Positions 16,600 to 64,000 of a stretch of DNA of 64,000 bases are shown here, piece by piece. The notes beneath the pieces are model-generated. The model was not told the origin of the DNA, made no database searches, and saw only the letters and a list, made by a program, of their open reading frames with translations. The first letter of the stretch is position 1. Each line of letters opens with the position of its first letter. Position numbers and translations under genes: made by a program. Origin of the DNA: an uncultured Candidatus Actinomarina sp. (lineage in GTDB: Bacteria; Actinomycetota; Acidimicrobiia; Actinomarinales; Actinomarinaceae); contig CABYLQ010000001.1 in the NCBI GenBank assembly GCA_902519845.1, positions 345,808-409,807 on the forward strand, read 5' to 3'.

Positions 16600-16606
16600 T
16601 TTTTAG

Positions 16607-16689: not shown

Positions 16690-16700
16690 TAAATGTCGCG

Positions 16701-16868: not shown

Positions 16869-16943
16869 CGGGCTGTGGCTCAGCTTGGCTAGAGCGCCTG
16901 CTTTGGGAGCAGGAGGTCGTGAGTTCGAATCTCACCAGCCCGA
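16869..16943 (+). tRNA. tRNA-Pro (anticodon TGG)
   Basis: Acceptor CGGGCTG/CAGCCCG; anticodon stem CCTGC/GCAGG with loop ttTGGga; T-arm GTTCGAATC. Confidence 0.8.
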
Positions 16944-16948
16944 CTAGT

Positions 16949-17019
16949 GCGGGTGTAGCTTAATGGCAAAGCTCCAGCCTTCCAAGCTGGCTATGAGGGT
17001 TCGATTCCCTTCACCCGCT
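16949..17019 (+). tRNA. tRNA-Gly (anticodon TCC)
   Basis: Acceptor GCGGGTG/CACCCGC; anticodon loop ctTCCaa; T-arm GGTTCGATTCC. Confidence 0.8.
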
Positions 17020-17025
17020 CAAGAG

Positions 17026-17099
17026 GCTCTCGTAGCTCAAATGGATAGAGCAACAGACTTCTAATCTGTAGGTTATAGGTTCGAGTCCTATCGAGAGCG
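17026..17099 (+). tRNA. tRNA-Arg (anticodon TCT)
   Basis: Acceptor GCTCTCG/CGAGAGC; anticodon stem ACAGA/TCTGT with loop ctTCTaa; T-arm GGTTCGAGTCC. Confidence 0.8.
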
Positions 17100-17103
17100 C
17101 CGA

Positions 17104-17182
17104 GGTGATCGTAGCTCAGTTTGGTTAGAGCGCCTGGTTGTGGTCCAGGAGGTCGCGGGTTCAAATCCCGTCGGTCACCCCA
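17104..17182 (+). tRNA. tRNA-His (anticodon GTG) with encoded G-1 and encoded CCA
   Basis: Extra 5' G before acceptor GTGATCG/CGGTCAC; discriminator C73; anticodon stem CCTGG/CCAGG with loop ttGTGgt. Confidence 0.8.
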
Positions 17183-37677: not shown

Positions 37678-38240
37678 AAAATATTGGTGTATTGGGTGGA
37701 ACTTTTGATCCTCCACATGAAGCACATCTTAAAATTGCAGAAAGATCTTTAAATCAATTTAAACTAGATAAAATCATTTTTATTCCATCTGGTAATCCTT
37801 GGCAAAAAAAAGATTCGACGCCGTATAGTCACAGATTTGAAATGACAAAAATCTTAATTAAAAATTCTGATTCATTTGCACTAAGCGACCTTGAAAGTTC
37901 AGAACAAAATCCTTCTTATACATATGAAACACTTGAAAAGCTACAGCATCCAAAAGAAAATTTGTACTTCATACTTGGCTCAGATACCGCAATGAATATA
38001 AAAACATGGAAAAACTATGGTCAATTATCAAATTTAACGCAATTCTTAATTGCTCTTAGAAAAGAAGATAGTTTTGAGACACTTTCTAAAAATTTTCCGT
38101 TTGATTATGAATTAATTGAAGGTGAAAAATTAGATTTAAGTTCAACTGGATTACGAGAAAAATTGGAGGAAAATAAAATGAATAATATTGAATTACCTTC
38201 AGAAATTTTTAATTATATAAAGGAAAATAAAATTTATTGA
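37674..38240 (+). CDS. nadD: Nicotinate-nucleotide adenylyltransferase
   Basis: (H/T)xGH motif GGTFDPPHEAH; 188 aa; conserved position after proA in Actinobacteria. Confidence 0.85.
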   Translation: MKNIGVLGGTFDPPHEAHLKIAERSLNQFKLDKIIFIPSGNPWQKKDSTPYSHRFEMTKILIKNSDSFALSDLESSEQNPSYTYETLEKLQHPKENLYFILGSDTAMNIKTWKNYGQLSNLTQFLIALRKEDSFETLSKNFPFDYELIEGEKLDLSSTGLREKLEENKMNNIELPSEIFNYIKENKIY

Positions 38241-38707
38241 ATTTTTTTGTTAATTTCATCAACTTCTGATTCTAATTCTTTAAGCTTTCCCAAAACATTA
38301 TCCTCTAATTCTTCAATTTTTTCTATTTCTGTTTCTAATTCTTGGAGTTTTTCTAAAACATCATCGTTTGTATGACCATCAACATAATTTTGGATAAATT
38401 TTGCAGAAACAATTGCTGTAATAGTAGCTATCAATCCAAGTCCCAATAACATCAACAAACCAGCCACAACTCTACCAAGGGTGGTTAAAGGTGTGATGTC
38501 TCCATATCCTACTGTTGTAATAGTTACCAATGCCCACCAGATACCGTCACCAAAAGTTTTAACTTGTGGCTCTGAAGCATAAAATAAGTAGCCGAAAATT
38601 CCTATGAAAAATATTAACGCTACAAGAATGGTCCTTAAGCGTCTACTGTTGAAAATTGTCTCTAATAAAGAAAAAAAGTTTCTAACTCTACTCAAATCTC
38701 TCCTCAA
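38234..38707 (-). CDS. Two-TM potassium channel (KcsA-like pore) with C-terminal heptad coiled coil
   Basis: Selectivity filter TTVGYGD between two TM helices; C-terminal LEKLQELETEIEKIEELEDNVLGKLKELESEVDEINKKIQ. Convergent with nadD, with a 7-nt 3' overlap. Confidence 0.8.
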   Translation of the reverse strand: MRRDLSRVRNFFSLLETIFNSRRLRTILVALIFFIGIFGYLFYASEPQVKTFGDGIWWALVTITTVGYGDITPLTTLGRVVAGLLMLLGLGLIATITAIVSAKFIQNYVDGHTNDDVLEKLQELETEIEKIEELEDNVLGKLKELESEVDEINKKIQ

Positions 38708-38734: not shown

Positions 38735-39109
38735 ATGGTAACATATTTATTAATGGCAGAAGAAAAAATAAAAAATTTACATAACTTTTTCTTTGAAAGC
38801 GTAATCGATATACTTCTGGTTCAAAAATGTACAAACATTAAAGCATTTGAAATTGAAAATAATAGCTACTTTGATGTAATTATTATGTGCAATGTAAATT
38901 CAAATACCCAAATGGTCTCTTCTATAAAAAAGCTTAAGAAATTAGTTAAATCTAAAAATAAAAACATCTTTTCTGAGGGTTTAGATTCTTCATGGGCACT
39001 AGTTGAGTTTGAAGGTGTAGGTATCCATTTCTTCACGGAAGAAGCAAGAGAATACTATAACTTAGATGATTTATTTTTTGATAGCAATCTAATGCTTCAG
39101 TACGGGTAA
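38735..39109 (+). CDS. rsfS: Ribosomal silencing factor RsfS (Iojap family)
   Basis: C-terminal GVGIHFFTEEAREYYNLDDLF matches the RsfS signature (vVHIF...REyYdLE.LW); expected neighbour of nadD. Confidence 0.6.
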   Translation: MVTYLLMAEEKIKNLHNFFFESVIDILLVQKCTNIKAFEIENNSYFDVIIMCNVNSNTQMVSSIKKLKKLVKSKNKNIFSEGLDSSWALVEFEGVGIHFFTEEAREYYNLDDLFFDSNLMLQYG

Positions 39110-39122: not shown

Positions 39123-39195
39123 GGGGCTGTAGCTCAGTTGGCAGAGCACGTGCATGGCATGCACGGGGTCAGGGGTTCAAATCCCCTCAGCTCCA
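39123..39195 (+). tRNA. tRNA-Ala (anticodon GGC)
   Basis: Acceptor GGGGCTG/CAGCTCC with G3.U70 identity pair; anticodon stem CGTGC/GCACG with loop atGGCat; T-arm GGTTCAAATCC. Confidence 0.8.
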
Positions 39196-39204
39196 CAAAC
39201 AAAT

Positions 39205-40452
39205 ATGAATTTAAAATATATTAAAGAAATATTTATTCAAACCAAAGAATTAATTGGTTCTCAGTCAGTAATTGCATTAATAAGTTTAATTCAAGTTTCA
39301 TATGTAGTTAAAAAGTTAGGCGTTGAAAATTTTGGAGTAATCGCATTATTAATAGCTATTCCAAATTTGGTCTTTCGATCAATTCATGCAAACCATAGTG
39401 ATGTTATTTTATTAACACTCAAAAATGGAAAAAATATTGTGTCAGAATCACTATTTTTAAATTTTATCCTAGGACTTTTTTCATTCACTCTTTCTATGTT
39501 TGTATTTCTAAATCCAATAAATCCATTATTCTCTATCAACCAGTTAACTTCAATAGACGTATTGCCAGTAACTATAGTCTTATATTTATTCTCAAAAATT
39601 TTTCAAACTTTTTCTGAAACTAGTAAAGGTATATTAGTTTTTAAAAACAAAATGAAAAGTTTTTCATTTTTAGAATCATCCTCTATAGTTTTTAGATTTG
39701 TTCTAATAATTATTCTTTTAGGGATAAGTCCAACAATCCAAAGTTATCTTTTTGCTAATATTTTTTATTTTTTATACTCTGGTTTTTTTAGTTTATTTTT
39801 AATTAAAAAAGAATATGAATTGAATAAATTTTCATACGACGAGTTCAAACAATTTGTGGTATCAATTAAAAGATCATTCAATAGGGTTAGGATAAATCAA
39901 ATAATTTCATTAATACCTCAACATTTTGATATTATCTTTTTGTCAGTAGTGAGTGATTTTGGGACAGTTGGAATTTATCAATTTGCCAAAAGGTTGGTAG
40001 AACCTATAAATTATGTAATTTATAGTTTTACACCATGGATTCAAAACAAACTTAAAAATAATTCAAAAGATTTTAATATACAATCTTTTGTAAAAATGAT
40101 TTTAATACCAATTAGTTTTCTCTTATTCTCACTGTATGTATTTTTAGGTGAATTCATTATTTTACAAATTGGATCAGAAAGTTTTTTAAATTCATACAAC
40201 CCAATGATTATCTTATGTATTGGGTTTATAATTTATTTACTCACATTTTGGATAAGACAATCTCTTTTATTAAATAATCTTATACATTTCCATTCATATG
40301 GAAGACTAATTTATTGTTCAGCTTTTTTAGTGCTATCTTCTTTTCTAGCCAATAGTTTTAAAGAAATAGGGATTTCTGCATCGTTAACAATAGCTATATT
40401 TTTACAAAAAACTTTTGAATATATAATTTATAGGAAAAAATTAAAATCTTAA
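39205..40452 (+). CDS. Polysaccharide biosynthesis membrane protein, Wzx-like flippase (MOP superfamily, ~12 TM)
   Basis: ~415 aa, uniformly hydrophobic multi-helix pattern; context with Wzy-like and GT genes. Start ATG 39205 (the ORF-table start 39154 overlaps tRNA-Ala). Confidence 0.5.
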   Translation: MNLKYIKEIFIQTKELIGSQSVIALISLIQVSYVVKKLGVENFGVIALLIAIPNLVFRSIHANHSDVILLTLKNGKNIVSESLFLNFILGLFSFTLSMFVFLNPINPLFSINQLTSIDVLPVTIVLYLFSKIFQTFSETSKGILVFKNKMKSFSFLESSSIVFRFVLIIILLGISPTIQSYLFANIFYFLYSGFFSLFLIKKEYELNKFSYDEFKQFVVSIKRSFNRVRINQIISLIPQHFDIIFLSVVSDFGTVGIYQFAKRLVEPINYVIYSFTPWIQNKLKNNSKDFNIQSFVKMILIPISFLLFSLYVFLGEFIILQIGSESFLNSYNPMIILCIGFIIYLLTFWIRQSLLLNNLIHFHSYGRLIYCSAFLVLSSFLANSFKEIGISASLTIAIFLQKTFEYIIYRKKLKS

Positions 40453-40482
40453 TTTTTTTTAAAAAGCATTAAAGTATTAACT

Positions 40483-41847
40483 ATGAAGCTAAATAAAAAT
40501 AATCTTTACTTAGCTATAACCTTTTTTTCAATACTTCTAATTTTTATGGATTCATATAGTTTTTTTTCTGTTCCTGTTTCGTGGATTGGGTTAAGTTTTT
40601 TAATCCTTCCTTCAGTTACAAATTTTAAGGATAAAAATTTTAGGCAATACTTTTTTTATATTGTTGCTTTTCTTTTCGTTCTCAATCTAAATAGCTTTAT
40701 AAATATAATCTATAATAAATTTGATTATTCTTTTGAACCATACAGCTTATTGAGGTATTTAAATTTAATTTCATTTTTTTTAGTATATTTTTTTGTTTTG
40801 AATTTTTTTAAAAATAAAAATTATTCAAAATTTTTACAATTTGTTAAATTGTTTGTTTATACCTATTCCTTAATAATTATTTACATATATTTTGCCCAAA
40901 TTTTTGATTTGTATGAACCATTAAGAAATAGAGCTAATACAAATTTACTTGGTAATTCTGCACAATCAACTTTTTGGTTATCTCAACCTCATAGGGCTAT
41001 GGGAACATTCAGAGAACCAATTTTTTTAGTAGCTTTTTACTATCCAATGGTTCTACTTTATTTCATCAATACAAAAGAAAACAACTATATCTTAGCAATA
41101 ATTTCTGGTGCATCTCTTGGATTAACAAGAAGTAATTATCTAAAACTTTATGTTCTAATATTTATAATTATTTTGATATTTTATTACTTTAAAAATAAAT
41201 ATATAAACATACCAATCTATATATTATTTTCGTCTATTTTTATTTTTTCCTCAATCGGGCTTTTAGAATGCAACGTAAATCAATCAAGTAAAGAGTGCAG
41301 AGAATATCCAGAGACAGTTGAAAAAATTAATTCTTCAGGTGACTTCAGAATACTTTCCGGAACTAATAACGATGAACCTTTTTTAGATCGTGATAGATCA
41401 AATGTTGTAGTTTTTTTCTTAGACAATATTACTAATTTAAAACCGGTTGGGATTCAAAATGTAACCTCAAAATATCAAGAACATTTTGTATCAGAAATTT
41501 CTGAAGAAATGTACTTTATCAATAGAACTTTGCCAAAGTATCTTTTGACAAGATATAATTCTCAAAATTTTCGTACTGGTTATTATTCATTATTAGACTC
41601 CAAGCCAAATGTTCAAAATCTTTTTGTTTTTTATACGATTGGATTTGGATATATTTTCTTATTATTTTTGTTTTTATATTTTTTAAACCTTTTTTTTACA
41701 AAGAAAATTAATTTTAATTTATTTCTTTATTTGTATATATTATCTTTCGTTTTAATGAGCCCAATTGAAGAAGTAAATGCATATTATGGATTACTTATTG
41801 GATTTGCAAAAATATTATTAAGTAAGAAAGAAAATGAATATATATAA
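40483..41847 (+). CDS. O-antigen polymerase/ligase-like polytopic membrane protein (Wzy/WaaL-like)
   Basis: 454 aa, >10 TM segments with a central larger loop containing R/G-rich patches (LGLTRSNYL); genomic context. Confidence 0.45.
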   Translation: MKLNKNNLYLAITFFSILLIFMDSYSFFSVPVSWIGLSFLILPSVTNFKDKNFRQYFFYIVAFLFVLNLNSFINIIYNKFDYSFEPYSLLRYLNLISFFLVYFFVLNFFKNKNYSKFLQFVKLFVYTYSLIIIYIYFAQIFDLYEPLRNRANTNLLGNSAQSTFWLSQPHRAMGTFREPIFLVAFYYPMVLLYFINTKENNYILAIISGASLGLTRSNYLKLYVLIFIIILIFYYFKNKYINIPIYILFSSIFIFSSIGLLECNVNQSSKECREYPETVEKINSSGDFRILSGTNNDEPFLDRDRSNVVVFFLDNITNLKPVGIQNVTSKYQEHFVSEISEEMYFINRTLPKYLLTRYNSQNFRTGYYSLLDSKPNVQNLFVFYTIGFGYIFLLFLFLYFLNLFFTKKINFNLFLYLYILSFVLMSPIEEVNAYYGLLIGFAKILLSKKENEYI

Positions 41848-42904
41848 CTTTTCACCAGGTCCAGCTAGATTAGATCCTTCTATTATTAGTAAGTCCCAAG
41901 AGGCAATAGCTAATTATCAAAAAACTGGTTTATCAATTCTAGAGATTGGTCACAGATCTCAAGATTTTGAGACATTAGTAAACTCTCTTCAAGAAAATAT
42001 GATAAATATTTTTAATATTCCATCCAATTATTTCACTCTTCTCTTGCAAGGGGGGGCAACATATCAGAATACATTTATCGCTAATAACTTTGATAAAGAA
42101 AATAAACTTTTAGGATGCCTAGTAACAGGAACATGGGGGAGGTACTCAGTTGAAGATTTTTCAAAAATTAGAGATACAAAAATAATTGAAGTAAGTGAGA
42201 ATGAAATTGAAAATTATGTTCAAACACCATGGGATCTTGAAGGTGTTGATTATTTGCACCTAACGTCAAACGAGACAATAAATGGAGTTCAATTAAGAGA
42301 ATTCAATAAAATTCAGCATGATTCATTACTCATTGATATGTCCTCAGATATTGGTTCTTATAGTTTTGAATGGGACAATGTAGCTTATATTTATGCAGGA
42401 GCTCAAAAAAATATGGGCATTCCAGGTGTCTCAATTTGTATTGGAAATGAAAAGTATTTAAATTCAGAAGATAATACTAGATACCTCAATCTTGGACAAT
42501 TGGTAGAAAAGAAGTCTTTGTTGAACACACCCCCTACTTTTTCGATATACGTCCTAAAGCTTGTAACCGATTGGATGATTGCAATGGGAGGTATAAAACA
42601 TTTTGAAGAGAAATCAACTAAACAATCATCAAGACTATATGAACAATTAGGGAGCTATGGGGATTTTATAAACTTACCTGTGAGTGACTATTCAAAAAGT
42701 AGATCCAATATTATTTTTAAATTTAAAAATGAGGATTTGGAAAAAAAATTTCTTATAGAAGGAACTGAAAAAGGAATACTTGGGTTGAATGGACATAGAA
42801 GCGAGGGGGGAATAAGAATTAGCCTTTACAATTCAATTACAGATGAGATGGTCGATTACTTGTCAGAATTTATGGACAAATTTTTTGCAGATAATGGAAA
42901 ATAA
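41834..42904 (+). CDS. serC: Phosphoserine aminotransferase-like class V aminotransferase (SerC family)
   Basis: N-terminal NFSPGPA...EIGHRSQDF...PSNY..LLLQGGAT closely follows the SerC pattern (NFSAGPA...SHRGKEF...P.NY.VLF..GG). 356 aa. Confidence 0.7.
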   Translation: MNIYNFSPGPARLDPSIISKSQEAIANYQKTGLSILEIGHRSQDFETLVNSLQENMINIFNIPSNYFTLLLQGGATYQNTFIANNFDKENKLLGCLVTGTWGRYSVEDFSKIRDTKIIEVSENEIENYVQTPWDLEGVDYLHLTSNETINGVQLREFNKIQHDSLLIDMSSDIGSYSFEWDNVAYIYAGAQKNMGIPGVSICIGNEKYLNSEDNTRYLNLGQLVEKKSLLNTPPTFSIYVLKLVTDWMIAMGGIKHFEEKSTKQSSRLYEQLGSYGDFINLPVSDYSKSRSNIIFKFKNEDLEKKFLIEGTEKGILGLNGHRSEGGIRISLYNSITDEMVDYLSEFMDKFFADNGK

Positions 42905-43541
42905 TAACTTCACAGCTTATCAATTTGAAAACTATGACGTTGAGGGTCTAAAACTTGAAATTAATTTTTCAAATACCGACTTTATCGAGATAAAGACGCA
43001 TGAAGAAATAAATTCCCCAATTGAAAACATCGAAGAATCTTTTGAGCCACTTTTATTTGGAATTGATATGAATATAACAAATATCAGTAATGTAAATGAT
43101 TTAAGAGGCAAGAAAATGATTCTTCTAGACGGGCATCATCGATATGAATACTTGAAAAGAAATGATATTGAAAAATCAATTGAAATAGTTCTTATTTCAA
43201 TTGATGATATAGAAATTCTTTCTTACCCATCACGTTTAACAATTAGAAAAAAAGAATTTGAGGATATTCTTGAAAATTATAATTTTTCAAACAATGCCTC
43301 TTCAAAATTCTTTGTTTCATTAGATGATGTTAAATTTTTCAATGAGGAAATCGAGGACATTTATCAACTTTATGAATTTAAAAATTTCTGTTACGTCAAC
43401 AAGTATATAAGTTCAGCGGTCGATGAACATCAATCTAACGATGAAATAATTGTAAATTTTACCCCCATAGAAGTATCTGAAATTGAAGAAAACGACTCTC
43501 TTTTTCCTCCAAAATCTACATGGATAACTCCAAGATTATGA
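42894..43541 (+). CDS. Hypothetical acidic protein (215 aa) with a DGHHR motif reminiscent of ParB/Srx-fold (DGQHR-type) domains
   Basis: KMILLDGHHRYEYLKRND. Start ATG 42894, overlapping the serC stop. No other recognisable domain. Confidence 0.35.
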   Translation: MENNNFTAYQFENYDVEGLKLEINFSNTDFIEIKTHEEINSPIENIEESFEPLLFGIDMNITNISNVNDLRGKKMILLDGHHRYEYLKRNDIEKSIEIVLISIDDIEILSYPSRLTIRKKEFEDILENYNFSNNASSKFFVSLDDVKFFNEEIEDIYQLYEFKNFCYVNKYISSAVDEHQSNDEIIVNFTPIEVSEIEENDSLFPPKSTWITPRL

Positions 43542-44644
43542 AAATTTGTCACGTTATAAATTCTTTAAACAGGGGAGGCGCCGAATCGCATTTGTTGGAC
43601 TTAATTAATGCACAGCTAAATGATGGGATGGATGTCCATGTAACTGTAATTGGCGAAGATAACACTGAATCATATTCAATAGAGAGCGAACTACTTAAAA
43701 ATGGAATTAACATTACAAGACTTAATGGTCCGAGAATGTTCAATTTATTTTCCTATTTTTCAATGTATTCAAAATTCAGAAATGAAAAATTTGATATTAT
43801 CCACTCACATCAACCTCGGAGCGATTTTATGGTTTTTAGAATAAATAAATATTTATCAAAAAAAAGTAAATGGATTGTAAGTGTTCATGGAAAATATGAT
43901 ACATATCTAGAAAAAGGTAGTTTAAGTAACAACTTAAGAAAATACTTTATGAAGAGACTCTCTAAACATTGGCAATCTGCTTCTTCGATAATTGCAATTT
44001 CTGAGGAAGTAAAAAGTTGGATTGAAAATCTTAATCATGAATTGAATGTTGAGGTCATACCATATTGGATAGATATTAAAAATTCTAAAACTTTTGAAAA
44101 AAAAGGTACCGTAACACTTGGATTTCTTGGAAGACTAAATGCCAATAAAGGGATAGAAGACCTACTTAATGCACTTAATTCATACCAGCTTAAATCACTT
44201 GATTTTAAATTAATGATTGGTGGAAGTGGGACCGAAGAGTATTTAGAAAAATTACGAAATATGATCGACCAAGACAAAACTGAAAAAGTAAATTTTCTTG
44301 GATATATAGAAAATAGAGAAGAATTCTTTAATAATATAGATATATTTGTATTTCCATCTTTTTCAGAGGGTTTAGGTTTAGTACTTCTTGAAGCTATGAG
44401 TTTTTCAAAGATTTGCTTAACAAGAAATATTTTGCCAATGACAAATTATATAGATGAAGATTCGGGTTATTTGTTTGATGATGTTGATGGATTATCAAAT
44501 TCAATAGTTTCATCTATTCAAGATTTAGAAAACAATATTGAGTTAATACAAAAAAAATTGTTTAATATTGAAAAGAAATTAGAAAAATCAAGTAAGGAAA
44601 ATATATTTCCAAAATTAGTAAAGGTATATGAACAGTCAATTTGA
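43520..44644 (+). CDS. Glycosyltransferase family 1 (GT-B, GT4-like)
   Basis: N-terminal [12 protein letters not shown]; C-terminal [12 protein letters not shown] (E-x7-E region) typical of GT1. Confidence 0.8.
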
Positions 44645-47066
44645 ATATAGTAAAATAGAAAAGAAATGGCAAGATCACTGGGAAAATAGTGAAACTGTTA
44701 AGTGTGACTTAAAATCTGATAAACCAAAATTTTACAACCTTTGTATGTACCCCTATCCCTCAGGCGATTTGCATATGGGACACATAAGGAATTATACGAT
44801 CGGTGATGTTATTACAAGGTATAAACAAATGAATGGCTTTAATGTTTTATCTCCTATGGGCTGGGATTCATTTGGTCTTCCTGCCGAAAATGCAGCAATT
44901 AAAACTGGTATTCATCCAAGAGAATTTACAGAAGAAAGAATTGCAAATATGAAATCTCAAATTATCAGATTAGGTTCTTTATATGATTGGGATAGGGAAG
45001 TTGCAGCCCACTCTGTTGATTATTACAAATGGACTCAATATCTATTTATAAAATTGTTTGAAAATGATTTGGCTTACAAGGAGGACGCACCAGTAAATTG
45101 GTGTAATTCATGCAGAACAGTTCTAGCTAATGAACAAGTTATAGAAGGATCATGTGAGAGATGTGATACAGCAGTTGAGCCCAAAAATTTAAACCAATGG
45201 TTTCTAAAAATATCCGAATATTCTGAAGAATTATTACAAGGCCTTGATGAGATTGGTGATTGGCCAGAAAACGTGAAGACAATGCAAAGAAACTGGATTG
45301 GAAAATCTGAAGGCTCTCAGTTTGAATTAAACATAATTGGAACAGACCTTACTTTTGATGTTTTCACAACAAGACCTGATACATTGTTTGGGATGACTTT
45401 TGCTGTAATATCTCCAGAGCATGAATTAATCAACGAAATTATGGAACAATCCGATAAAAAGGACGAGATACAAAATTATTTAGACTCGATTGTAAATAAG
45501 TCAGAATTCGAGAGAATGTCTATTACAAAAGAAAAAACTGGAGTGGATACCATTTTGAAAGTTACGAATCCAATCACAAATGAGGAAGTACCTTTATGGA
45601 TAGCAGACTATGTTCTTGTAAACTATGGAACCGGTGCGATTATGGCTGTTCCAGCTCACGATGAAAGAGATTATGAATTCGCAAAAAAATACGATATTGA
45701 AATTAGACAGGTAATTATAGATAAAGAAAAAACAATAAATGTAGGCAAAGAGGCCTTTACTGGTAATGGAGTCCTTATCAATTCTGGAGAGTTCAATGAC
45801 TTAAGCTCTCACGAAGAAGCAAGTAAAAAGGTAAATGAATTTTTAGTAAAAAATAAGATTGGCGATGAAAAAACAACATATCGTTTGAGAGATTGGTTAA
45901 TCAGTAGACAGAGGTATTGGGGCTGTCCAATTCCATTAATCAATTGTGAAGACTGTGGATTATTACCAGAAAAATATGAAAATTTACCAGTATTACTTCC
46001 AGAAATTAAAGATTATATAAATACAGATGGATCTCCTCTATCCAAGAGTAAAGAATTTGTTGAAACTGATTGTCCAAAATGTTCTAAGAAAGCTCTTCGT
46101 GAAACTGACACTATGGATACTTTTGTAGATTCATCCTGGTATTACATGAGGTTTTTAGATCCTAAGAATGAAAAAGAACCTTTTAATTCTAACTTTATTA
46201 ATGAATGGTTACCGGTTGATCAGTATATTGGCGGAGTAGAGCATGCAATTTTACATTTATTGTATTCTCGCTTTTTTGTGAAAGCCCTTCGCGATCTTGG
46301 TCTAATGACTATTGACGAACCTTTTCACAATTTATTTTCTCAAGGCATGATAAATTTTGGAGGGGCAAAAATGTCAAAATCTAAAGGTAATATTGTAGAC
46401 CCCGAAGAATATTTTGCAACACATGGAGCAGACGCTCTCCGATTATATATTTTGTTTATGGCACCTCCCAGCGATGGGGTTGAATGGAATGATGGAGGTA
46501 TTGAGGGTACTAAACGCTTTTTAAATAAACTATGGGACAACTTGTTAAAAATCATAAATCAAGAAGATACAGAAAAAGAATTAAGTGAGGAGGATAATTC
46601 CTTAGAAAGAAAAATAAATCAGACTATTAAATCAGTTACCCAACATTTTGAAAAGTTCGAATTTAATACTGCTGTATCTGATTTAATGAAATTTAATAAT
46701 GACCTTAGTGAATATTTAAAACATGACTCTATTTTGCCAAAAGAATTAAAAGATGTACTCATAAAAAATATACTTATACTTTTATATCCCATGTCTCCGC
46801 ATATGGCATCTGAAATTTATGAAAGTTATTTTAAAAGTGATATAAGTACTGAGGAATGGGCAAATTATGATGATTCAAAATTAGAGAACCCTATGTATGA
46901 ATTAGTTGTACAAATAAATGGTAAAAAAAAGCATGCAATTATGGTTGAAACAGGAATTGAAGAAGATGATGCAATTACATTGTGTGAAAGTAATTTCGAT
47001 ATAAACTTTAAAGAAGCAAAAAAAATAATTTTTATAAAAGACAAAATAATTAATATAGTGCAATAA
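44628..47066 (+). CDS. leuS: Leucine--tRNA ligase
   Basis: 812 aa class I aaRS; HMGH ([11 protein letters not shown]) and KMSKS ([11 protein letters not shown]); CP1 editing domain. Confidence 0.92.
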
Positions 47067-47744
47067 GTGACAAAATTAATAATAGCCGAAGCCTTGATTT
47101 CAGATGTAAATGAAATTAAATCAGAGATTGATAGTGATGAAAACATTATTTCAATATCTAAGAATGAATTTATTGAAAGTAATAATGCAGCACTTTTTAA
47201 AAATGAAAGCTATCAATTTATCGAAGATGAATTTCTTACATTTAACGAGTTAAAAAAATTAAATTACAACTTTGATGATAAATATATATTTCAAGTTAAA
47301 AAATCAAATTTAAAATCATTCTCTGAAGTTTCAAGTCTTATTCAAACATTTTTTCCAGACAAAAAGAAGAACTTAGATATTTATCCCTGGGATCTTGTAA
47401 ATATTATTTTTTCTAATCAAAAAAAAATTACTAATGAAATTTTGGATAAATTTTGTAGTCGTGAAATCGTTTTTAGACAGTTTCTAACCTATTTCAATAA
47501 AGAATTACAAAGGATTTCACTACTTGACAAATATGAGCAAGAGGAAGTATCAGAGCTTTTGTCCGAAAAAATTGATTATAAATATGAACTCGCTGAAAAA
47601 AGAAAAAGTAAGTTATCTTCAGATGACGTTAGTAATTCACTAGTAATGATATATAAAATAGAAAAACTGAATTCGGACACTAAATTTAGTGAAGAAAATG
47701 CAAAAAGATTTATCGTATCTATTAAAAATGTTTTACAATTTTGA
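47067..47744 (+). CDS. Hypothetical protein (225 aa, GTG start); by position possibly a reduced DNA polymerase III delta subunit (holA)-like gene
   Basis: Lies between leuS and rpsT, where Actinobacteria usually carry comEA-comEC-holA. No motif recognised; assignment by synteny only. Confidence 0.3.
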   Translation: MTKLIIAEALISDVNEIKSEIDSDENIISISKNEFIESNNAALFKNESYQFIEDEFLTFNELKKLNYNFDDKYIFQVKKSNLKSFSEVSSLIQTFFPDKKKNLDIYPWDLVNIIFSNQKKITNEILDKFCSREIVFRQFLTYFNKELQRISLLDKYEQEEVSELLSEKIDYKYELAEKRKSKLSSDDVSNSLVMIYKIEKLNSDTKFSEENAKRFIVSIKNVLQF

Positions 47745-57933: not shown

Positions 57934-58006
57934 TCCGAGGTAGCTCAATTGGCAGAGCAGCGGACTGTTAATCCGTTGGTTGTGGGTTCAAGTCCCACCC
58001 TCGGAG
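57934..58006 (+). tRNA. tRNA-Asn (anticodon GTT)
   Basis: Acceptor TCCGAGG/CCTCGGA; anticodon loop ctGTTaa; T-arm GGTTCAAGTCC; followed by a T6 run. Confidence 0.8.
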
Positions 58007-58054
58007 CTTTTTTAATTAGAAAAAAAAAGTATAATTACATGTGAATGGAGGATA

Positions 58055-58345
58055 ATGGATAATTTAGTAGAACTAATCCAAACAAATGCAGAAGGCAAAG
58101 ATCTAAGTGTTCTTGGAGGAACTGTAAAGCTTGTTGTTGATGATCAAATTGTCTTTGTTAAACCAGATGGAGAAATCTCTGGAAGTGACGAAGAGGCAGA
58201 TTGTACAATGACAATTGATTCAGAAACAATGCAATCAATAATGAACGGTGAAACCAGTGGGCAAGCTGCATTTATGACTGGAAAGCTTAAAGTTTCTGGT
58301 GATATGGGAATTGCTCTTAAAACTCAATCATTTTTAGGCAAGTAA
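58055..58345 (+). CDS. SCP-2 sterol-transfer-domain small protein
   Basis: 96 aa; C-terminal AFMTGKLKVSGDMGIALK matches the SCP2 family signature. Confidence 0.65.
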   Translation: MDNLVELIQTNAEGKDLSVLGGTVKLVVDDQIVFVKPDGEISGSDEEADCTMTIDSETMQSIMNGETSGQAAFMTGKLKVSGDMGIALKTQSFLGK

Positions 58346-58353
58346 TTAAATTA

Positions 58354-58427
58354 GGGCCTGTAGCTCAGTTGGTTAGAGCAACGGACTCATAATCCGTCGG
58401 TCGCAGGTTCGAGTCCTGCCGGGCCCA
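58354..58427 (+). tRNA. tRNA with CAT anticodon (elongator tRNA-Met or lysidine-modified tRNA-Ile2)
   Basis: Acceptor GGGCCTG/CGGGCCC; anticodon loop ctCATaa; T-arm GGTTCGAGTCC. G1-C72 pair argues against initiator. Confidence 0.75.
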
Positions 58428-58429
58428 CA

Positions 58430-60415
58430 GTGAGTGAAAACAAAAAATTGAGTAAATTAAATTCTCGCACCATAGGTTCAGTATTTGCTATTTCTCTTTT
58501 AATTCCACAAAACATCGGTATTAATCTTCTCGGAATCAATTTTGAAGATATACCATTAATAGTCATTTTTCTTGTATTGCTGATTCTAAAAATACAGAAT
58601 TTTACTTTACAAAAATTCGACATCATATTTTTATCTTTTTTAGGATTCTTTGTAATTTACACAACTTTTTCGGTCAGCGAATTTAAATTATTTAATCAAA
58701 CTAACTTAAGATTTTATTTTTATTTTATGCTCTCTTATTTGTGTATAGATTTACTTAAAAAAAATGAAAATCGAATTATCGACCTTTTTGAACCTTTAGG
58801 TATTGTGATGTTGGCTAATTTCATAGTTATAATTTTTCAAATTCAACTACCTGGAACAATTGATGGATGGGTGTTGAACAATACTGATAGTATAAATCCA
58901 TTTGCATCAGGCAGACTAGGTGGTTTTCAAGGAGGAGGCCCTAATGTAATTGGTATAATATGCGCAATTTATTGTTTACTATGTGTTCACAAATTAATTA
59001 TTTCTGGCAATATAAGAACTTTTTTATTTGAAGATAGACTCAACGCCTCTTTGCTTTTTATATCTCTGATTAATCTAATTTTTACATTTTCTAGAGGATC
59101 ATATCTTGCATTATTTATTGGCTTACTAACTTTAATTATGTTTTCTGAAAAAATTGATAAGGCTATTAAAACTTATTTTGTGACAAGTCTTAGTCTTATC
59201 GTAGTCTTTTCAATTTACACATTTCCGGGAATATTTCTTAAGGAAACCAATAGATCTTTTCTTAACTCATTAGGAGCGAAAAATACAGAAATATTTGTCG
59301 GTGCAGGTGGTGGAAATTATATTAAAAGTGTTTATGAAGAATATTTAGTTACTTTGGATGAAGATATACTTCTTGATGAATTCAACATTATCTATTCAGA
59401 AGAAGAAAGGTCAAGACTTTTAGATCCTACAGAGAATGAAATTTCAATGCCAGTTGAAGGCTTTCTTAAATTAAGGTTTGATTATCAAGACAATCTTTTA
59501 CCAAGATCAATTATTTCTTTTTATTATTCAAATGATGGTTCAAGTTGGAATCAATTAGGTTCTGATCATACAAGTGGAGTAGTAATTGATTTAATTGAAA
59601 ATGATTCTTTTTTTGAGGTTGGTGGATGGGGAGATGGTCAATCTCCTGGGGATCAATACCTTAGTGGATTTGTTAAAAAGACAATTATTCAGACAGATGA
59701 TTATAAAAGAGAATATAACTTTACAAAAGAAAACAGAGATATTGACTATTTATTACTCACTCCATTAAATAAAAATCAGTATGAAAGACAAGTCGAATAT
59801 AATGATAATTCTATAAGACTTGAAAGACCAAGAAGTTACTGGTTAGCGTTGCCAAATGAAGTTAATTTGTCTGGAAAAGATTTTGAGGTAACTATTGAAT
59901 TAAATCTTCAATCAGTTCCAAAAGGTCATGAAACATTGTTAAGTCAAAGTTCAATCTTAAAACTTAATGATAAATTTAATGATCAGTCTTGGAAGTGGTC
60001 AATTATAGATGGTAGGATGTACTTCTTTTGGATTGAAAATGTAACATCAGGATATTCAAATTTTGTAGGAGGACAAAGTTTGAGATCTGGAAAATTAATT
60101 TCAAACAATGGAGTATTTGATTCTGTAATTTCAGATTTTTCATTATCTCAATATGATGAGATTACTACTGCGCATAATGGCTTTTTAACAATGTCTGTTG
60201 AATATGGTATATTCCCAATATCGATCATTATATTTTTGATTGCTTATTCACTAATTAAGAACTTTAAAAAATCTTTTGGATTTGAAATTTCTTTGTTATT
60301 AATGTTCGTTGCACAAAACCTTACAAATGACCTCGTATATGCACCAGATGTTGGAATTTACTTTTGGCTAATTCCGATTTATTTCATTTCCAATTCTTTA
60401 AGAGTCAAGAACTGA
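58430..60415 (+). CDS. O-antigen-ligase-like (Wzy_C) polytopic membrane protein with a ~330-aa extracytoplasmic insertion (661 aa)
   Basis: N-terminal ~9 TM helices with the ligase-type loop FTFSRGSYLALFIGLL. Residues ~280-600 are hydrophilic (GGWGDGQSPGDQYLSGF...). Two further C-terminal TM helices. GTG start immediately after the tRNA. Confidence 0.5.
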   Translation: MSENKKLSKLNSRTIGSVFAISLLIPQNIGINLLGINFEDIPLIVIFLVLLILKIQNFTLQKFDIIFLSFLGFFVIYTTFSVSEFKLFNQTNLRFYFYFMLSYLCIDLLKKNENRIIDLFEPLGIVMLANFIVIIFQIQLPGTIDGWVLNNTDSINPFASGRLGGFQGGGPNVIGIICAIYCLLCVHKLIISGNIRTFLFEDRLNASLLFISLINLIFTFSRGSYLALFIGLLTLIMFSEKIDKAIKTYFVTSLSLIVVFSIYTFPGIFLKETNRSFLNSLGAKNTEIFVGAGGGNYIKSVYEEYLVTLDEDILLDEFNIIYSEEERSRLLDPTENEISMPVEGFLKLRFDYQDNLLPRSIISFYYSNDGSSWNQLGSDHTSGVVIDLIENDSFFEVGGWGDGQSPGDQYLSGFVKKTIIQTDDYKREYNFTKENRDIDYLLLTPLNKNQYERQVEYNDNSIRLERPRSYWLALPNEVNLSGKDFEVTIELNLQSVPKGHETLLSQSSILKLNDKFNDQSWKWSIIDGRMYFFWIENVTSGYSNFVGGQSLRSGKLISNNGVFDSVISDFSLSQYDEITTAHNGFLTMSVEYGIFPISIIIFLIAYSLIKNFKKSFGFEISLLLMFVAQNLTNDLVYAPDVGIYFWLIPIYFISNSLRVKN

Positions 60416-61519
60416 ATTTTTTTTCAAAAAATTATGAATTGTATCATTTAGAACTAACACTTGCCTTCCATCATTTAATGTTAAGTAATCGACAGGTGTT
60501 GTAAATTTTTGGACATTACTTAAATCAATATTTCTAAAAGTCCATAGAATTTCAACTGCTTTATTTATTGATAAATTTTCATCGATAATGAATGAGTTTT
60601 CCAAAGCTTTTATAAAAGAATTGAGTTCATTCACTGACTCAAATTCTTTTAACTCATTGATTAATTGCATTACAACATATTGTTGCCTGTCAATTCTTGT
60701 GAGATCACTAACTCCAAGCATAGGCTTCCACTCAGATATGTCATTTCCTTTATTATCAATAAGTTTTTCACCTACTAATTCTTCAGTTGATCTTGAAACA
60801 ACCCAATTCAAAGTAGTTAGTCCATTAACTGTCTGACATCCTTCTTGTAATTCAAAGCTAAATCCCTCACGTTGAGTCTTATCAACACAAATTTCGATAC
60901 CATCTACTGAGTCAATAATTTCCTCAAAGCCCTCAAAGTCAAAGCTTGCAAAATTTGTAACTCGTATTCCTGAAATGCTATATATGGCTGCAGCTAAATT
61001 TTCTGCTCTGCCCCCACACTCATTTTTACTATACGCTGCATTAATCCTCTCTAATTTTCCTGTACAATTGTTTTTTATTAACAGATCACGTGGAAAAGAA
61101 AGTAAAGTAATTTCTTTTGATGATTTCTCAACAAGCCCAAGAATAATTACATCTGCTCGCTTCCCTGTTATTTCACCCCTTGTTAAGGCAATCTCTGCAG
61201 ATCTTTCATCTGAGCCAATCAATAAATACACGTCAAAATTAGTTATTTCCTTTTCAAACTCATTTAATAGGAGAACTTTATCAATATCTGATATTTCTTC
61301 CTCTGTCAAAACCAATTCATCCATGGATGAAATAGATTCTTGAGTATTTTGTTCACTATTTTCTTTAATTGTCGTAGTGGTAACACCCTCTATAATGTCA
61401 TCAATGACTTCCTGATCAAATTCTTCAGTCTCTAGATTTGGGATAAAACTAAAAATTACTATTGTTGCAATAACAAGTATTCCTAGAAATAAATACGTAT
61501 ATTTATTAAAAATTTTCAT
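60398..61519 (-). CDS. LytR-CpsA-Psr (LCP) family cell-wall glycopolymer phosphotransferase
   Basis: N-terminal TM anchor; LCP motifs (YLLIGSDER...RADVIILG...SFPRDL...INAAY...GG...NFASFDFEGF). Confidence 0.8.
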   Translation of the reverse strand: MKIFNKYTYLFLGILVIATIVIFSFIPNLETEEFDQEVIDDIIEGVTTTTIKENSEQNTQESISSMDELVLTEEEISDIDKVLLLNEFEKEITNFDVYLLIGSDERSAEIALTRGEITGKRADVIILGLVEKSSKEITLLSFPRDLLIKNNCTGKLERINAAYSKNECGGRAENLAAAIYSISGIRVTNFASFDFEGFEEIIDSVDGIEICVDKTQREGFSFELQEGCQTVNGLTTLNWVVSRSTEELVGEKLIDNKGNDISEWKPMLGVSDLTRIDRQQYVVMQLINELKEFESVNELNSFIKALENSFIIDENLSINKAVEILWTFRNIDLSNVQKFTTPVDYLTLNDGRQVLVLNDTIHNFLKKNSVLDS

Positions 61520-61545
61520 ACAATACCAAATTACATAATATAACT

Positions 61546-62277
61546 ATGTATTCTTTAGTTGTGGAAAATATCAAATGTATTATAGCCGCAGGTGGCCTTG
61601 GAACAAGATTGCAAGAATTTAGAGGAAATAAATCTACAAAAATACTTTTAGACGTAAATGGAACCCCCATGATTAATCAACAAGTTTCTCAACTTGTTAA
61701 CTGGGGAATGAGAAAATTTGTAATTATAACTAACCCGGAATACTTCAATATGATACAAGAAGTTACTCTTGGTGAATTTAAAGATTTAGAAATAGAATTT
61801 ACTATTCAAGAAGAACCAAAAGGAATATCACATGCTTTATATCAAGCAAGAGATTATGTAGATGAAAATGAGAAAATATTTTTTGTTTTAGGCGATAATT
61901 TTTTTGAAAATAGTCCATTTAATAATTTTGATTTCAAAAATTTTCATCAAGGTGCATGTATATTTACAACTGAAGTAAACAACCCTGAGGAATTTGGAGT
62001 AGCTGAGATGGATATTGACGGAAAAGTTCTTTCAATTGAGGAAAAGCCTACCAATCCTAAATCCAATGATGCAGTTGTGGGTTTATACATGTTTGATAAT
62101 TCTGTTTTTAATAAGATTGATACTTTAGAACCATCTGCCAGGGGAGAATATGAAATTACAGACTTATGCAATATTTTTGTTTCAGAAAATAAATGTATGA
62201 ACTTAAATATAAATGGCTGGTGGATCGATGCAGGAACTCCTGAAAGAATTATTGAACTTGAAGAAAAGTTAAGTTAA
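61546..62277 (+). CDS. Sugar-phosphate nucleotidyltransferase (RmlA/LicC-like, 243 aa)
   Basis: N-terminal IIAAGGLGTRL (GxGTRL) nucleotide-binding motif; short single-domain form. Confidence 0.7.
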   Translation: MYSLVVENIKCIIAAGGLGTRLQEFRGNKSTKILLDVNGTPMINQQVSQLVNWGMRKFVIITNPEYFNMIQEVTLGEFKDLEIEFTIQEEPKGISHALYQARDYVDENEKIFFVLGDNFFENSPFNNFDFKNFHQGACIFTTEVNNPEEFGVAEMDIDGKVLSIEEKPTNPKSNDAVVGLYMFDNSVFNKIDTLEPSARGEYEITDLCNIFVSENKCMNLNINGWWIDAGTPERIIELEEKLS

Positions 62278-63309
62278 GACCTTCAATCTTATTGAAATTA
62301 AGTAAGTTAGAAAATAAACAGTAAACAAAACTCCAATAATTAAAAGTGATAATTGGGTTGAAGTAAAAATTGAGAGATAAATTAATAAAAAAGTTCCAAG
62401 ACTATAAATTAGAAATATTGAAAGAACTGTTTTTTCAGAAAATCCTTTTGCAAGTAATCGATGTGAGATATGGTCTGTTCCACCGATAGTAGGTGATTTT
62501 CCTATACTAATTCTGTAGGTAACAACAACAAGAAAATCTATTAAGGGAACTGAAAATACTAACAATATTGGGCTGAGTGTAGTTGAATAAACAGTAACAT
62601 CTTCTGGGACCCAGCTATATATAATACTCATAAATCCTAGACAAAAACCTATAAATAAACTACCAGAATCTCCAAAGTATAATTTTGCAGGTGGGAAATT
62701 GAAAAATAAAAAACCTCCAATTGTACAAAGTAGAAGAATAGAAATATCTGTTAACTTATACTGGTTTAAATAATTTGTTAAGACTGCAATCTGTATACAT
62801 ATAGCTGAAGAGACAACTACGGCAAGCCCATCCATATTATCTATAAAATTTATTGCATTCATTATCAACATAATCCAAATCGTTGAAACTATGTAATTTA
62901 AAGAATTATTGAATTCTAAGCCAATAAGTGATTCAAAATTTATAAAAATATTTAAGTTATACAAAGGTATGTAGACAATGATTATTTGAAAGAAGAATTT
63001 AATATACCATTTAAAATTATACAAATCATCTAGCAAGCCAATAATTGAAATTATTACTGCGAAAAAACCTACGTATAAGAAATTACTTTCAGCCTGTCCT
63101 AGAAGTCTTGTAGATATCAAAAATGCGATAGAACAAGCAATACCACCAAATGGTGGGACATATCTTGAAGATAATCTTTCTTCATTTTTTCTTATACTCG
63201 GTACAAAGTTTTTTGTTCTTTGTAGAGTTATCCAATTAAAGAATAGGGATAATAAAATTGTTGCTATCGCTGCACTTGTTATTGATACTTGAAAATTAGA
63301 TAAATTCAC
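62269..63309 (-). CDS. wecA: Polyprenyl-phosphate N-acetylhexosamine-1-phosphate transferase (GT4 MraY/WecA family)
   Basis: DDxxN/D (LLDDLYNF) and NAINFIDNMDGLA motifs of the MraY/WecA superfamily; ~10 TM. Confidence 0.8.
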   Translation of the reverse strand: MNLSNFQVSITSAAIATILLSLFFNWITLQRTKNFVPSIRKNEERLSSRYVPPFGGIACSIAFLISTRLLGQAESNFLYVGFFAVIISIIGLLDDLYNFKWYIKFFFQIIIVYIPLYNLNIFINFESLIGLEFNNSLNYIVSTIWIMLIMNAINFIDNMDGLAVVVSSAICIQIAVLTNYLNQYKLTDISILLLCTIGGFLFFNFPPAKLYFGDSGSLFIGFCLGFMSIIYSWVPEDVTVYSTTLSPILLVFSVPLIDFLVVVTYRISIGKSPTIGGTDHISHRLLAKGFSEKTVLSIFLIYSLGTFLLIYLSIFTSTQLSLLIIGVLFTVYFLTYLISIRLKVLT

Positions 63310-64000
63310 TTTTGTAGCTCTCGATCTCTTTTCTTAAATATCGATAAATTTTATTATATGCAGCTGCAATTTTGACAGATGTATAGTTTTTATCAATTAA
63401 TTCTCTATTGTATTTGGCATCTTCTCCAAAAAGAATATTTTGTGTACTATCTAAAAAAGCATCATGATTAATTATTTCATCAAGATTTCTTCTAAATTCT
63501 TCAATATTGTTTTCATCTATAAAGAAAGAATTTCTAAATTTTGAGCTGAGCTCTGATGTGCCTGGAATATTATTAGATAAACATATTAATCCTACATACA
63601 AAGATTCTAAAAGTATTCTTGAAGATCCCTCATACTTTGACATAACAATATTTATATCGAAATTTTGAAGCTCTTTCTTTATATCAATATGTCCTAAATA
63701 ATTTATAAAGTTACTATTTTTTATTTCATTTAGCTGAGATTCACTTAGTGAATCTGGATTTCCATTGTCTAAATCACCAGCTAGATAGAACTCAAAATCT
63801 GAATCTTTCATCAAATTAGCTAGCTCAAGATATTCAAATACACCTTTGTCATTAATTAACCTTGTAGCCATAATTACTTTTAAATTTGAGTTTCGATATT
63901 CTTTTTTTAACTCAAGTTCCTTCACGGTTATCCCAGAAGTTGGAATTATAAAAGATTCACCATTATATTTTGAGTAATTATTAAATGTTTTTTGATCTTC
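63296..64000 (-). CDS. Glycosyltransferase family 1, C-terminal part (gene begins beyond the window end)
   Basis: The C-terminal GT-B half (KVIMATRLINDKGV...ESLYVGLICLSNNIPG) starts abruptly, which indicates the N-terminal domain lies past 64000. Overlaps the wecA start by 14 nt (operon). Confidence 0.6.
   Translation of the reverse strand, partial: EDQKTFNNYSKYNGESFIIPTSGITVKELELKKEYRNSNLKVIMATRLINDKGVFEYLELANLMKDSDFEFYLAGDLDNGNPDSLSESQLNEIKNSNFINYLGHIDIKKELQNFDINIVMSKYEGSSRILLESLYVGLICLSNNIPGTSELSSKFRNSFFIDENNIEEFRRNLDEIINHDAFLDSTQNILFGEDAKYNRELIDKNYTSVKIAAAYNKIYRYLRKEIESYKSEFI

Follow-up and report, generated by a model that had tools for sequence, protein, structure and literature searches.

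Divergent, exchanged allele classes of two membrane-protein genes at constant gene content between tRNA-Ala and leuS of Candidatus Actinomarina

Serotype-specific wzx and wzy genes of O-antigen and capsule loci are swapped by homologous recombination via conserved flanks, as at E. coli rfb beside gnd and at pneumococcal cps. Within the order Candidatus Actinomarinales, the closest described system is the flexible genomic island fGI1, a tRNA-associated glycotype island of 43-79 kb with five tRNAs, in which gene content differs even within species and cassette growth is marked by tRNA-fragment repeats; the study that described it reports no other island common to all genera (Lopez-Perez et al. 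2020, PMC7771536). The locus considered here lies in a stretch of 64,000 nucleotides of Candidatus Actinomarina DNA (Actinomarinales, formerly OCS155; ~31% GC, precisely 31.3%), referred to below as the window. It comprises the five protein-coding genes between tRNA-Ala(GGC) and leuS, namely two open reading frames for membrane proteins (ORF1 and ORF2), serC, ORF4, which encodes a protein with a DGHHR motif, and a gene of glycosyltransferase family 4 (GT4). An earlier note on this DNA, made from the sequence without database searches, had read all five as a surface-glycan cluster forming a hypervariable flexible island. Comparison with related genomes leads to another reading, which we consider probable: the stretch is one of fixed gene content and joins a glycan module, ORF1/ORF2, that occurs as exchanged allele classes, a serine pair, serC/ORF4, and the conserved GT4 gene. 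The variable ORF1/ORF2 locus is described in neither of the two Actinomarina genome papers (PMC7771536 and the 2026 preprint 'Actinomarina, resolved'), both of which report essentially one hypervariable island.

Allele classes of ORF1 and ORF2 at constant gene content

Related loci (designated by L-numbers) were retrieved with ORF4 as the anchor, and the sample consists of 29 Actinomarinales loci from species-representative genomes together with contigs from single-cell amplified genomes, metagenome-assembled genomes (MAGs) and ENA, and metagenome contigs. The close relatives recovered from genome collections are all named Candidatus Actinomarina; the ORF4 of the window itself has no exact match in the assembly collection, which does not contain its source genome. 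The order rsfS, tRNA-Ala(GGC), ORF1, ORF2, serC, ORF4, GT4, leuS is constant in all loci long enough to judge (the 29 loci and the longer metagenome contigs) and persists down to relatives whose LeuS is only ~70% identical. The stretch occupies an equivalent chromosomal position, from rsfS/tRNA-Ala to leuS, in all loci, with the tRNA-Ala gene identically placed in all 24 related loci inspected and 100% identical in the alignment of the left boundary. No extra gene or integrase lies between tRNA-Ala and leuS in any locus examined, and among the 29 loci and the metagenome contigs gene content does not differ between strains of one species. Replacement of gene content between tRNA-Ala and leuS had been foreseen in the earlier note; the comparison gave identical content, the very outcome that the note had set against its own proposal.

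Sequence divergence within this constant order is concentrated in two genes. Against L005, L006 and L018, the flanks of the window are ~97% identical at the nucleotide level, with RsfS at 98% amino-acid identity, and sliding identity falls in ORF1/ORF2 only, to 55-69% of nucleotides and 44-53% of amino acids; in the comparison with L005 it is ~97% throughout except for 55-69% over 39194-41894. The edges of this block are sharp, the left one lying ~65 nucleotides inside ORF1, past the invariant tRNA, and the right one at the ORF2 stop/serC start, and they enclose a variable part of ~2.6 kb (Table 1). Synonymous divergence (dS) between the window and L005 is 1.44 in ORF1 and 1.69 in ORF2 as against 0.05-0.19 in the flanking genes, and the ORF1 protein of the window shares 45-54% amino-acid identity with that of every other genome. 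The GC content of ORF1/ORF2 is 23.4% (23.5% in ORF1), the lowest of the genes here and to be compared with the 31.3% of the window. Between L005 and L004, a pair from different species, the pattern is reversed: the flanks have dS of at least 1.7, yet the values are 0.20 in ORF1 and ORF2, 0.27 in serC, 0.23 in ORF4 and 0.33 in GT4.

The variants fall into old, discrete classes. Pairwise identities among 151 ORF2 sequences have two modes, one in the range 40-55% and the other at or above 80%. Grouped by single linkage with a threshold of 65-70%, the sequences form 15-21 clusters, a lower bound on the number of classes, with amino-acid identity between classes of no more than ~50%. Within classes the ratio of nonsynonymous divergence (dN) to dS is 0.09-0.18, and the ORF1/ORF2 genes are therefore functional and under purifying selection. 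The ratio was set aside (dN >1; out-of-register ends of tblastn segments) for rsfS in the inter-clade pairs L004-L017, L005-L004, L001-L018 and window-L004 and for GT4 in L004-L014. The distribution of the classes is incongruent with the clades given by the flanks, as class I occurs in the two clades alike and class II in L001, L015 and also L018, and in L018 a class-I-like ORF1 is joined to a class-II ORF2. The ORF2 class of the window is absent from all species-representative genomes and is represented in a database of 5.8 billion proteins only by the sequences P0180-P0183 (100, 87, 87 and 71% identity). A Tara Oceans contig matches the window at 98.7% over 3869 nucleotides covering rsfS, the tRNA, ORF1, ORF2 and serC, and the ORF1/ORF2 class of the window is both real and rare. 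Clusters whose identity to the ORF2 of the window is 87% or higher contain ~23 sequences, and those that reach 89% or higher with its ORF4 contain ~1,100. Taken as a proxy for the recruitment of metagenomic reads, these numbers predict a drop in ORF1/ORF2 only.

Vertical divergence without any exchange, with ORF1 and ORF2 simply fast-evolving and weakly constrained membrane proteins, is extremely unlikely as an explanation. The membrane-spanning segments are indeed the least conserved parts, AT-rich hydrophobic proteins often evolve fast, and a nearby ORF of 225 residues and rsmE are also fast, being 64-65% identical between clades. Such a process would leave no room for saturated dS in ORF1/ORF2 beside flanks that are ~97% identical, nor for the converse pair with saturated flanks and an ORF1/ORF2 dS of 0.20, and it likewise conflicts with the bimodal identities, the within-class dN/dS of 0.09-0.18 and the sharp edges of the block.

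An assembly artefact, in which contigs would be chimeras of co-occurring Actinomarina populations fused within conserved stretches, for instance at the tRNA, is highly improbable. Identical junctions turn up in many single-cell genomes, MAGs and metagenome contigs obtained independently in different projects, the independent Tara contig repeats the rsfS-tRNA-ORF1-ORF2-serC join at 98.7%, and a single cell should not give a mixture of populations. In favour of an artefact, the 2026 preprint notes that assembly graphs of co-occurring Actinomarina species collapse where sequence is conserved, and the breakpoints here do fall in highly conserved sequence.

Table 1. Coordinates of the features of the locus within the window
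Feature	Position	Strand	Evidence or remark
rsfS (ribosome silencing factor)	38735..39109	+	Pfam RsfS and TIGR00090 above cut-offs; conserved flank, putative anchor of recombination on the left
tRNA-Ala(GGC)	39123..39196	+	ARAGORN; Rfam tRNA 66 bits
ORF1, candidate Wzx/MOP-like flippase, 415 residues	39205..40452	+	Pfam Polysacc_synt
ORF2, polytopic membrane protein, remotely WaaL/Wzy-like, 454 residues	40483..41847	+	
Hypervariable cassette, approximate limits	39270..41840		from ~65 nucleotides inside ORF1 to the ORF2 stop/serC start
serC, 3-phosphoserine/phosphohydroxythreonine aminotransferase	41834..42904	+	NF003764
ORF4, DGHHR protein, predicted ParB/Srx fold, 215 residues	42894..43541	+	
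GT4-family glycosyltransferase, GT-B	43520..44644	+	Pfam domains
leuS	44628-47066	+	codons 1-490 = 44628..46098

All features named in the earlier note are present, and the block does begin right at the tRNA (Table 1). The start of ORF1 is set at the ATG at 39205, 8 nucleotides past the tRNA, since a longer ORF from 39154 enters the tRNA gene, and the ORF1 alleles all start with MNLKY or MNISF; the start of ORF4 is set at 42894, where the resulting 215 residues match the length of essentially all homologues. Overlaps of 14, 11, 22 and 17 nucleotides join ORF2/serC, serC/ORF4, ORF4/GT4 and GT4/leuS, respectively, and a gap of 30 nucleotides, with no overlap, separates ORF1 from ORF2. The co-directional, overlapping arrangement pointed out in the earlier note is real apart from this gap, but it lacks the meaning of a cluster that was attached to it. 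The + strand holds 50 of the 55 long ORFs of the window, 24 of its 48 co-directional neighbour pairs overlap (median gap -0.5 nucleotides) and ~97% of it is coding; co-direction and overlap are the norm of the window, and such packing is therefore no evidence of a functional cluster. A scan of 38-48 kb found 44 promoter-like sites vs 61 in shuffled sequence and did not usefully delimit operons. The strongest of the promoter-like sites (11/12, a match to the consensus only) lies at 41530-41559, in the 3′ end of ORF2 upstream of serC, and the single terminator-like site of the scan is within leuS. An Rfam scan of 36-48.5 kb returned nothing besides the tRNA.

Recombination in the flanks and the flexible-island question

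The genes to the right of the cassette show recombination tracts from serC to the middle of leuS. In the same-species pairs window/L018 and L004/L016, serC, ORF4 and GT4 are ~80% identical and rsfS and leuS 97-98%. Between the two clades, leuS has dS of ~0.19-0.40 in codons 1-490 and of at least 1.2, mostly 1.4-2.8 with one value saturated, in codons 491-812, at nucleotide identities of 93-98% vs 70-82%. The switch in dS near codon 490 therefore places a breakpoint near window position 46098, and this switch is sharp, intragenic and common to all inter-clade pairs tested. Codons 1-490 of leuS form the tract of recombination on the right and have been made homogeneous across species. The comparisons show that the cassettes differ between two conserved flanks, of which the left one consists of tRNA-Ala and the 5′ end of ORF1 and the right one runs from serC through the first two thirds of leuS, and that across these flanks the cassettes are exchanged within and between species. 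The two boundaries named in the earlier note, tRNA-Ala and leuS, lie close to the limits of this exceptional region, and the hypervariability that it had extended to the whole block is found in ORF1/ORF2, as divergent alleles, and not in the other three genes. The exchange would proceed by homologous recombination with the conserved flanks serving as anchors, and serC, ORF4 and GT4, not variable themselves, would hitch-hike on recombination centred on ORF1/ORF2. Hitch-hiking patterns of this kind are known around O-antigen and capsule loci and around the replacement islands of aquatic bacteria. The resulting mosaic, with its 2.6-kb cassette, its shoulder of 80% identity and its switch in mid-leuS, could serve as a natural marker for quantifying recombination, both inside Actinomarina species and from one to another.

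The wider surroundings hold further variable spots and tRNA genes. The ORF of 225 residues at 47067-47744, which separates leuS from rpsT, matches nothing in Pfam or NCBIfam; it evolves rapidly, with 65% amino-acid identity between clades where its neighbours have 90% or more. To the left of rsfS, a K+ channel gene on the - strand (38234-38707) forms a second local variable spot, being ~80% identical to L005 in nucleotide sequence over 38294-38594 between flanks of 97-99%; its protein has 157 residues in the window and 132 in L001 and L003. Six tRNA genes are packed into ~600 nucleotides at 16606-17182, those for Leu and Lys on the - strand and those for Pro, Gly, Arg and His on the + strand.

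The position of the cassette beside a tRNA gene, the low GC content of ORF1/ORF2, the presence of glycan-type genes and the existence in the order of a tRNA-associated glycotype island (PMC7771536) would all fit a tRNA-targeted flexible island whose content is replaced by integrase insertion at tRNA-Ala or by replacement of the whole cluster. This explanation is nevertheless very unlikely, because content and order are identical in the 29 loci and the metagenome contigs, because the tRNA 3′ end is not repeated in the window and no integrase or extra gene was found between tRNA-Ala and leuS in any locus, and because fGI1 itself appears to start elsewhere, at ~58.4 kb. The 31-nucleotide 3′ part of tRNA-Ala recurs nowhere else in the window with up to 3 mismatches allowed, and integrase-type insertion at tRNA-Ala was rejected on account of this missing direct repeat. 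A search of viral contigs (IMG/VR) with the ORF2 profile returned no relatives and hence no evidence of a phage-borne cassette. Of the flexible genomic island proposed in the earlier note, the features that stand are a variable, recombination-prone, low-GC and surface-related stretch, and those that fall are gene turnover and tRNA-targeted integration.

The island proper appears to be separate from the stretch between tRNA-Ala and leuS and to begin ~14 kb downstream. In the region at 58.4 kb, following tRNA-Asn (57934-58007) and tRNA-Met (58354-58428), a set of glycan genes within 57934-64000 opens with a Wzy_C-like membrane protein of 661 residues (26 bits, sub-threshold) and further includes a LytR-CpsA-Psr (LCP) ligase, an RmlA-like nucleotidyltransferase, a WecA/MraY-like transferase of the Glycos_transf_4 family and a GT1 glycosyltransferase. 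The published fGI1 probably has its left end in this set. In L048, L069 and L079, identity to the window is 93-97% for the first two genes of the island but only 64-73% for the adjoining dnaG.

Predicted functions of the five genes

The ORF1 protein is a candidate polysaccharide flippase of the MOP/Wzx-like type, in agreement with the earlier note. It matches Pfam Polysacc_synt at 32.1 bits (cut-off 28.2) over profile positions 8-260 of 274, as do four of seven ORF1 alleles of other genomes (best expectation value, E, 3.2e-9), and a crude hydropathy scan gives ~10 hydrophobic segments. A search of PDB sequences returned no match for it. Identification of ORF1 as MurJ was rejected, as no MurJ-family Pfam match appears at E ≤0.01 and its behaviour is not housekeeping-like.

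For ORF2, a role as WaaL/Wzy-like ligase or polymerase is plausible but remote. The protein of the window has no family match and no PDB sequence match, and does not match Pfam Wzy_C at E up to 10, so that it stays below the gathering threshold; weak matches to Wzy_C occur in 8 of 23 ORF2 homologues (best E 0.0046, sub-threshold). What remains of the Wzy/WaaL-like polymerase named in the earlier note is a polytopic membrane protein with such weak matches among its homologues. Its loops contain the invariant motifs QSxFWLSxPHRAMxTFREP, GLxRS and NVQN. The invariant Arg and His of the loops, R148, R150, H170, R171, R177 and R216, may correspond to the catalytic ones of WaaL/Wzy. In class II (L001, L018; ~7650-8954 in these loci), ~30 residues of the large hydrophilic loop are absent, including the near-invariant EMYFTNRTLPxYLLxRYSTQNFGTGNYS, and the ORF2 classes therefore differ in loop architecture besides sequence.

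The GT4 product contains Pfam Glyco_transf_4 (67.8 bits) in its N-terminal part and Glycos_transf_1 (88 bits) in its C-terminal part, and also matches Glyco_trans_1_4, with no NCBIfam equivalog reached at its cut-off. Its best PDB match is the lipid-linked-oligosaccharide transferase WlaC/PglH (E 2.8e-12), and the gene is conserved in all relatives. Judged by these domains, it is a generic GT-B glycosyltransferase, and the earlier note was right that a glycosyltransferase gene is present, with both domains of the GT4 family above threshold.

In the proposed mechanism, ORF1 would flip, and ORF2 polymerise or ligate, an undecaprenyl-linked envelope glycan, and the classes would persist because phage or grazers exert frequency-dependent selection on the cell surface. 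Alternatively, the ORF1/ORF2 classes may have to match the variable glycan of the island ~14 kb downstream. Several points weigh against the reading of ORF1/ORF2 as an exchanged glycan module. Between classes, dS is saturated. ORF1 lies barely above its Pfam threshold, and the assignment of ORF2 leans on a structural model with a predicted local distance difference test (pLDDT) value of 63 and on sub-threshold Wzy_C matches, with nothing found when that model was compared with the PDB by Foldseek. Hydrophilic loops are the most conserved parts of ORF2 and membrane segments vary, a pattern that suits a catalytic enzyme, unlike the expectation of simple phage-receptor escape. Finally, L048, L069 and L079 share the first two genes of the downstream island with the window (93-97% amino-acid identity) but carry another ORF2 class (48%); this lack of co-variation concerns the first two island genes, ~3 kb of 43-79 kb, which is too little to decide whether ORF2 class and island go together.

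The serC gene and ORF4 point to a different part of metabolism. SerC scores 329.6 bits against NF003764 (cut-off 253) and 313 bits against TIGR01364, under the stricter cut-off of 443.6 of that model; its PDB sequence matches, 21 of 21, are phosphoserine aminotransferases aligned over the full length (best E 2.6e-67), and the gene is present in all Actinomarinales loci examined. As far as these family matches go, serC is a genuine housekeeping phosphoserine aminotransferase and not a sugar aminotransferase; the aminotransferase family given in the earlier note is upheld and the glycan role is not, in view of NF003764 and the 21/21 PDB matches. According to the 2026 preprint, serC is absent from the genus by KofamScan. 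This absence conflicts with the clear serC of the window and of all relatives, and the gene may have been missed because its score is below the TIGR01364 cut-off (313 vs 443.6).

ORF4 is a candidate free L-serine kinase that resembles SerK and SbnI in its predicted structure. SerK is TK0378 of Thermococcus kodakarensis, a free L-serine kinase (PMC5120207), and serK adjoins serine-pathway genes in Desulfurococcales; a DUF1015 family named 'SerBK' has been proposed to consist of SbnI-like serine kinases encoded beside serA/serC (bioRxiv 10.1101/2024.10.14.618325). The AF2 model of ORF4 has a mean pLDDT of 88.7. Its comparison with the PDB by Foldseek gives nine matches at E ≤0.001, all of them SbnI, SerK or the Pyrococcus homologue 1vk1, with E values of 3.7e-7 to 2.1e-5, 230-258 aligned columns over the full length and template modelling (TM) scores of 0.40-0.54. 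Sulfiredoxins align with just a single domain (E of at least 0.09), and the predicted structure has the two-domain ParB/Srx-type fold of SerK/SbnI over its full length. Residues agree with the fold, as the profile alignment places the HE of ORF4 on H29-E30 of SerK and DGHHR on DGHHR, and E30, the catalytic Glu of SerK, is the residue changed (E30A, E30Q) in the deposited substrate complexes of SerK; DGHHR is the motif for nucleotide binding. H36, E37 and D79-R83 (D79GHHR83) are invariant in 17-20 members of the ORF4 family, which also has an invariant C-terminal motif. Free serine kinases rank at the top when the ORF4 profile is compared with the PDB, at E of 0.11-0.48, which is not significant; significant sequence similarity to characterised kinases was not found, the best E against SerK/1vk1 being 0.11 with the profile and 0.9 with the single sequence. 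The ORF4 of the window matched no Pfam family, and 5 of 17 family members have weak DUF1015 matches. The family comprises 60 representatives among 1.84 billion proteins, is confined to Actinomarinales and always adjoins serC in their loci. From the predicted fold and these residues, it may represent a new branch within the SerK/SbnI/DUF1015 group of serine kinases, and ORF4 may be the most novel item of the region. The DGHHR motif reported in the earlier note is confirmed; membership in a glycan pathway is not, as the predicted fold matches only SerK/SbnI.

Small ParB-like proteins of 134-144 residues in archaea share the three motifs of ORF4 (PHE, LDGHHRYE and PPKTS). They are found in a Pyrodictiaceae MAG (L038, 9857-11483) and in a Poseidoniales MAG (L034, 7833-8267), the Pyrodictiaceae gene lying directly upstream of a gene for a 400-residue protein dependent on pyridoxal phosphate (PALP, cysteine-synthase-like). 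Comparison of these proteins with the ORF4 family by hhalign gives 95% probability over only 51 columns.

SerC and ORF4 would together interconvert serine, O-phosphoserine and 3-phosphohydroxypyruvate, either for serine assimilation or for the supply of O-phosphoserine. It could be asked whether all five genes form one pathway after all, in which GT4 builds a glycopolymer, ORF1 flips it and ORF2 polymerises or ligates it, with SerC and the SerK-like protein supplying a substituent derived from serine or phosphoserine. Adjacency of the genes is conserved across the whole order, overlaps couple them translationally, and SbnI offers the precedent of a serine kinase that feeds staphyloferrin B synthesis. 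Such a pathway is unlikely, given that overlap and co-direction are the genome-wide norm, that synteny is conserved over the entire 20-kb region including the unrelated proA, nadD, leuS and lepA, that serC is of the standard housekeeping type with no other serC seen here, and that ORF1/ORF2 evolve unlike serC, ORF4 and GT4. A serine/O-phosphoserine module that is merely located here is the more likely interpretation of SerC and ORF4, and the claim that all five genes are glycan genes fails for these two, which are assigned to serine metabolism.

Taken together, these results open a far-reaching combined interpretation that is possible, although we lean slightly against it as a whole. It holds that ORF4 founds a minimal (215-residue) bacterial family of free L-serine kinases always paired with SerC, and that ORF1/ORF2 are a trans-species balanced polymorphism with at least 15 ancient classes kept by frequency-dependent selection at constant gene content. 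Were ORF4 such a kinase, one of the smallest free-living cells of the ocean would have a route from serine via O-phosphoserine to 3-phosphoglycerate, or a supply of O-phosphoserine, and serine biosynthesis would be complete in a lineage recently reported to be without serC. Were the ORF1/ORF2 polymorphism balanced, the surface would diversify in a way unseen by pangenome analyses of gene content.

Relation to known systems

Three practical consequences follow for work on such genomes. Serine metabolism in an abundant, uncultured lineage is to be reconstructed differently once serC and a candidate free serine kinase are included. Surveys of the flexible genome of streamlined marine bacteria count the presence and absence of genes, and strong surface variation at the strain level and exchange between species can hide at unchanged gene content. 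For annotation, co-direction and overlap at a coding density of 97% must not be taken to mean that an operon is a pathway.

Set beside the SerK/SbnI/DUF1015 proteins, ORF4 has in common with them the predicted fold, the HE pair, the DGHHR motif and a serine-pathway gene as neighbour. It differs from SerK and SbnI in its size, 215 residues as against ~240-254, in the absence of significant sequence similarity, and in belonging to a tiny family confined to Actinomarinales.

The comparison with the replacement islands of aquatic bacteria rests on PMC7771536 (its reference 26). The ORF1/ORF2 locus shares with replacement glycotype islands and fGI1 an order-wide position, a tRNA neighbour, low GC content, a link to the envelope and exchange across species. 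Unlike fGI1, which is 43-79 kb long, contains five tRNAs, changes in content and bears tRNA-fragment repeats, the cassette measures 2.6 kb, is constant in content and has no repeats.

The likeness to the wzx/wzy serotype loci is that a flippase-like and a polymerase/ligase-like gene occur in both as deeply divergent discrete classes, are exchanged via conserved flanks with tracts that hitch-hike in neighbouring housekeeping genes (here from serC to leuS), and have low GC content. The present locus departs from them in that only two membrane proteins vary, without variable genes for glycosyltransferases or sugar synthesis, and in that all variants are homologous to one another with no change of gene content. 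Its host is moreover a streamlined actinobacterium, which is not expected to possess an outer membrane (PMC7771536), and the Wzy/WaaL assignment is only remote. What is new with respect to the known systems is an exchange of the wzx/wzy-like kind that involves two homologous membrane-protein genes only, at constant gene content and apart from the main glycan island.

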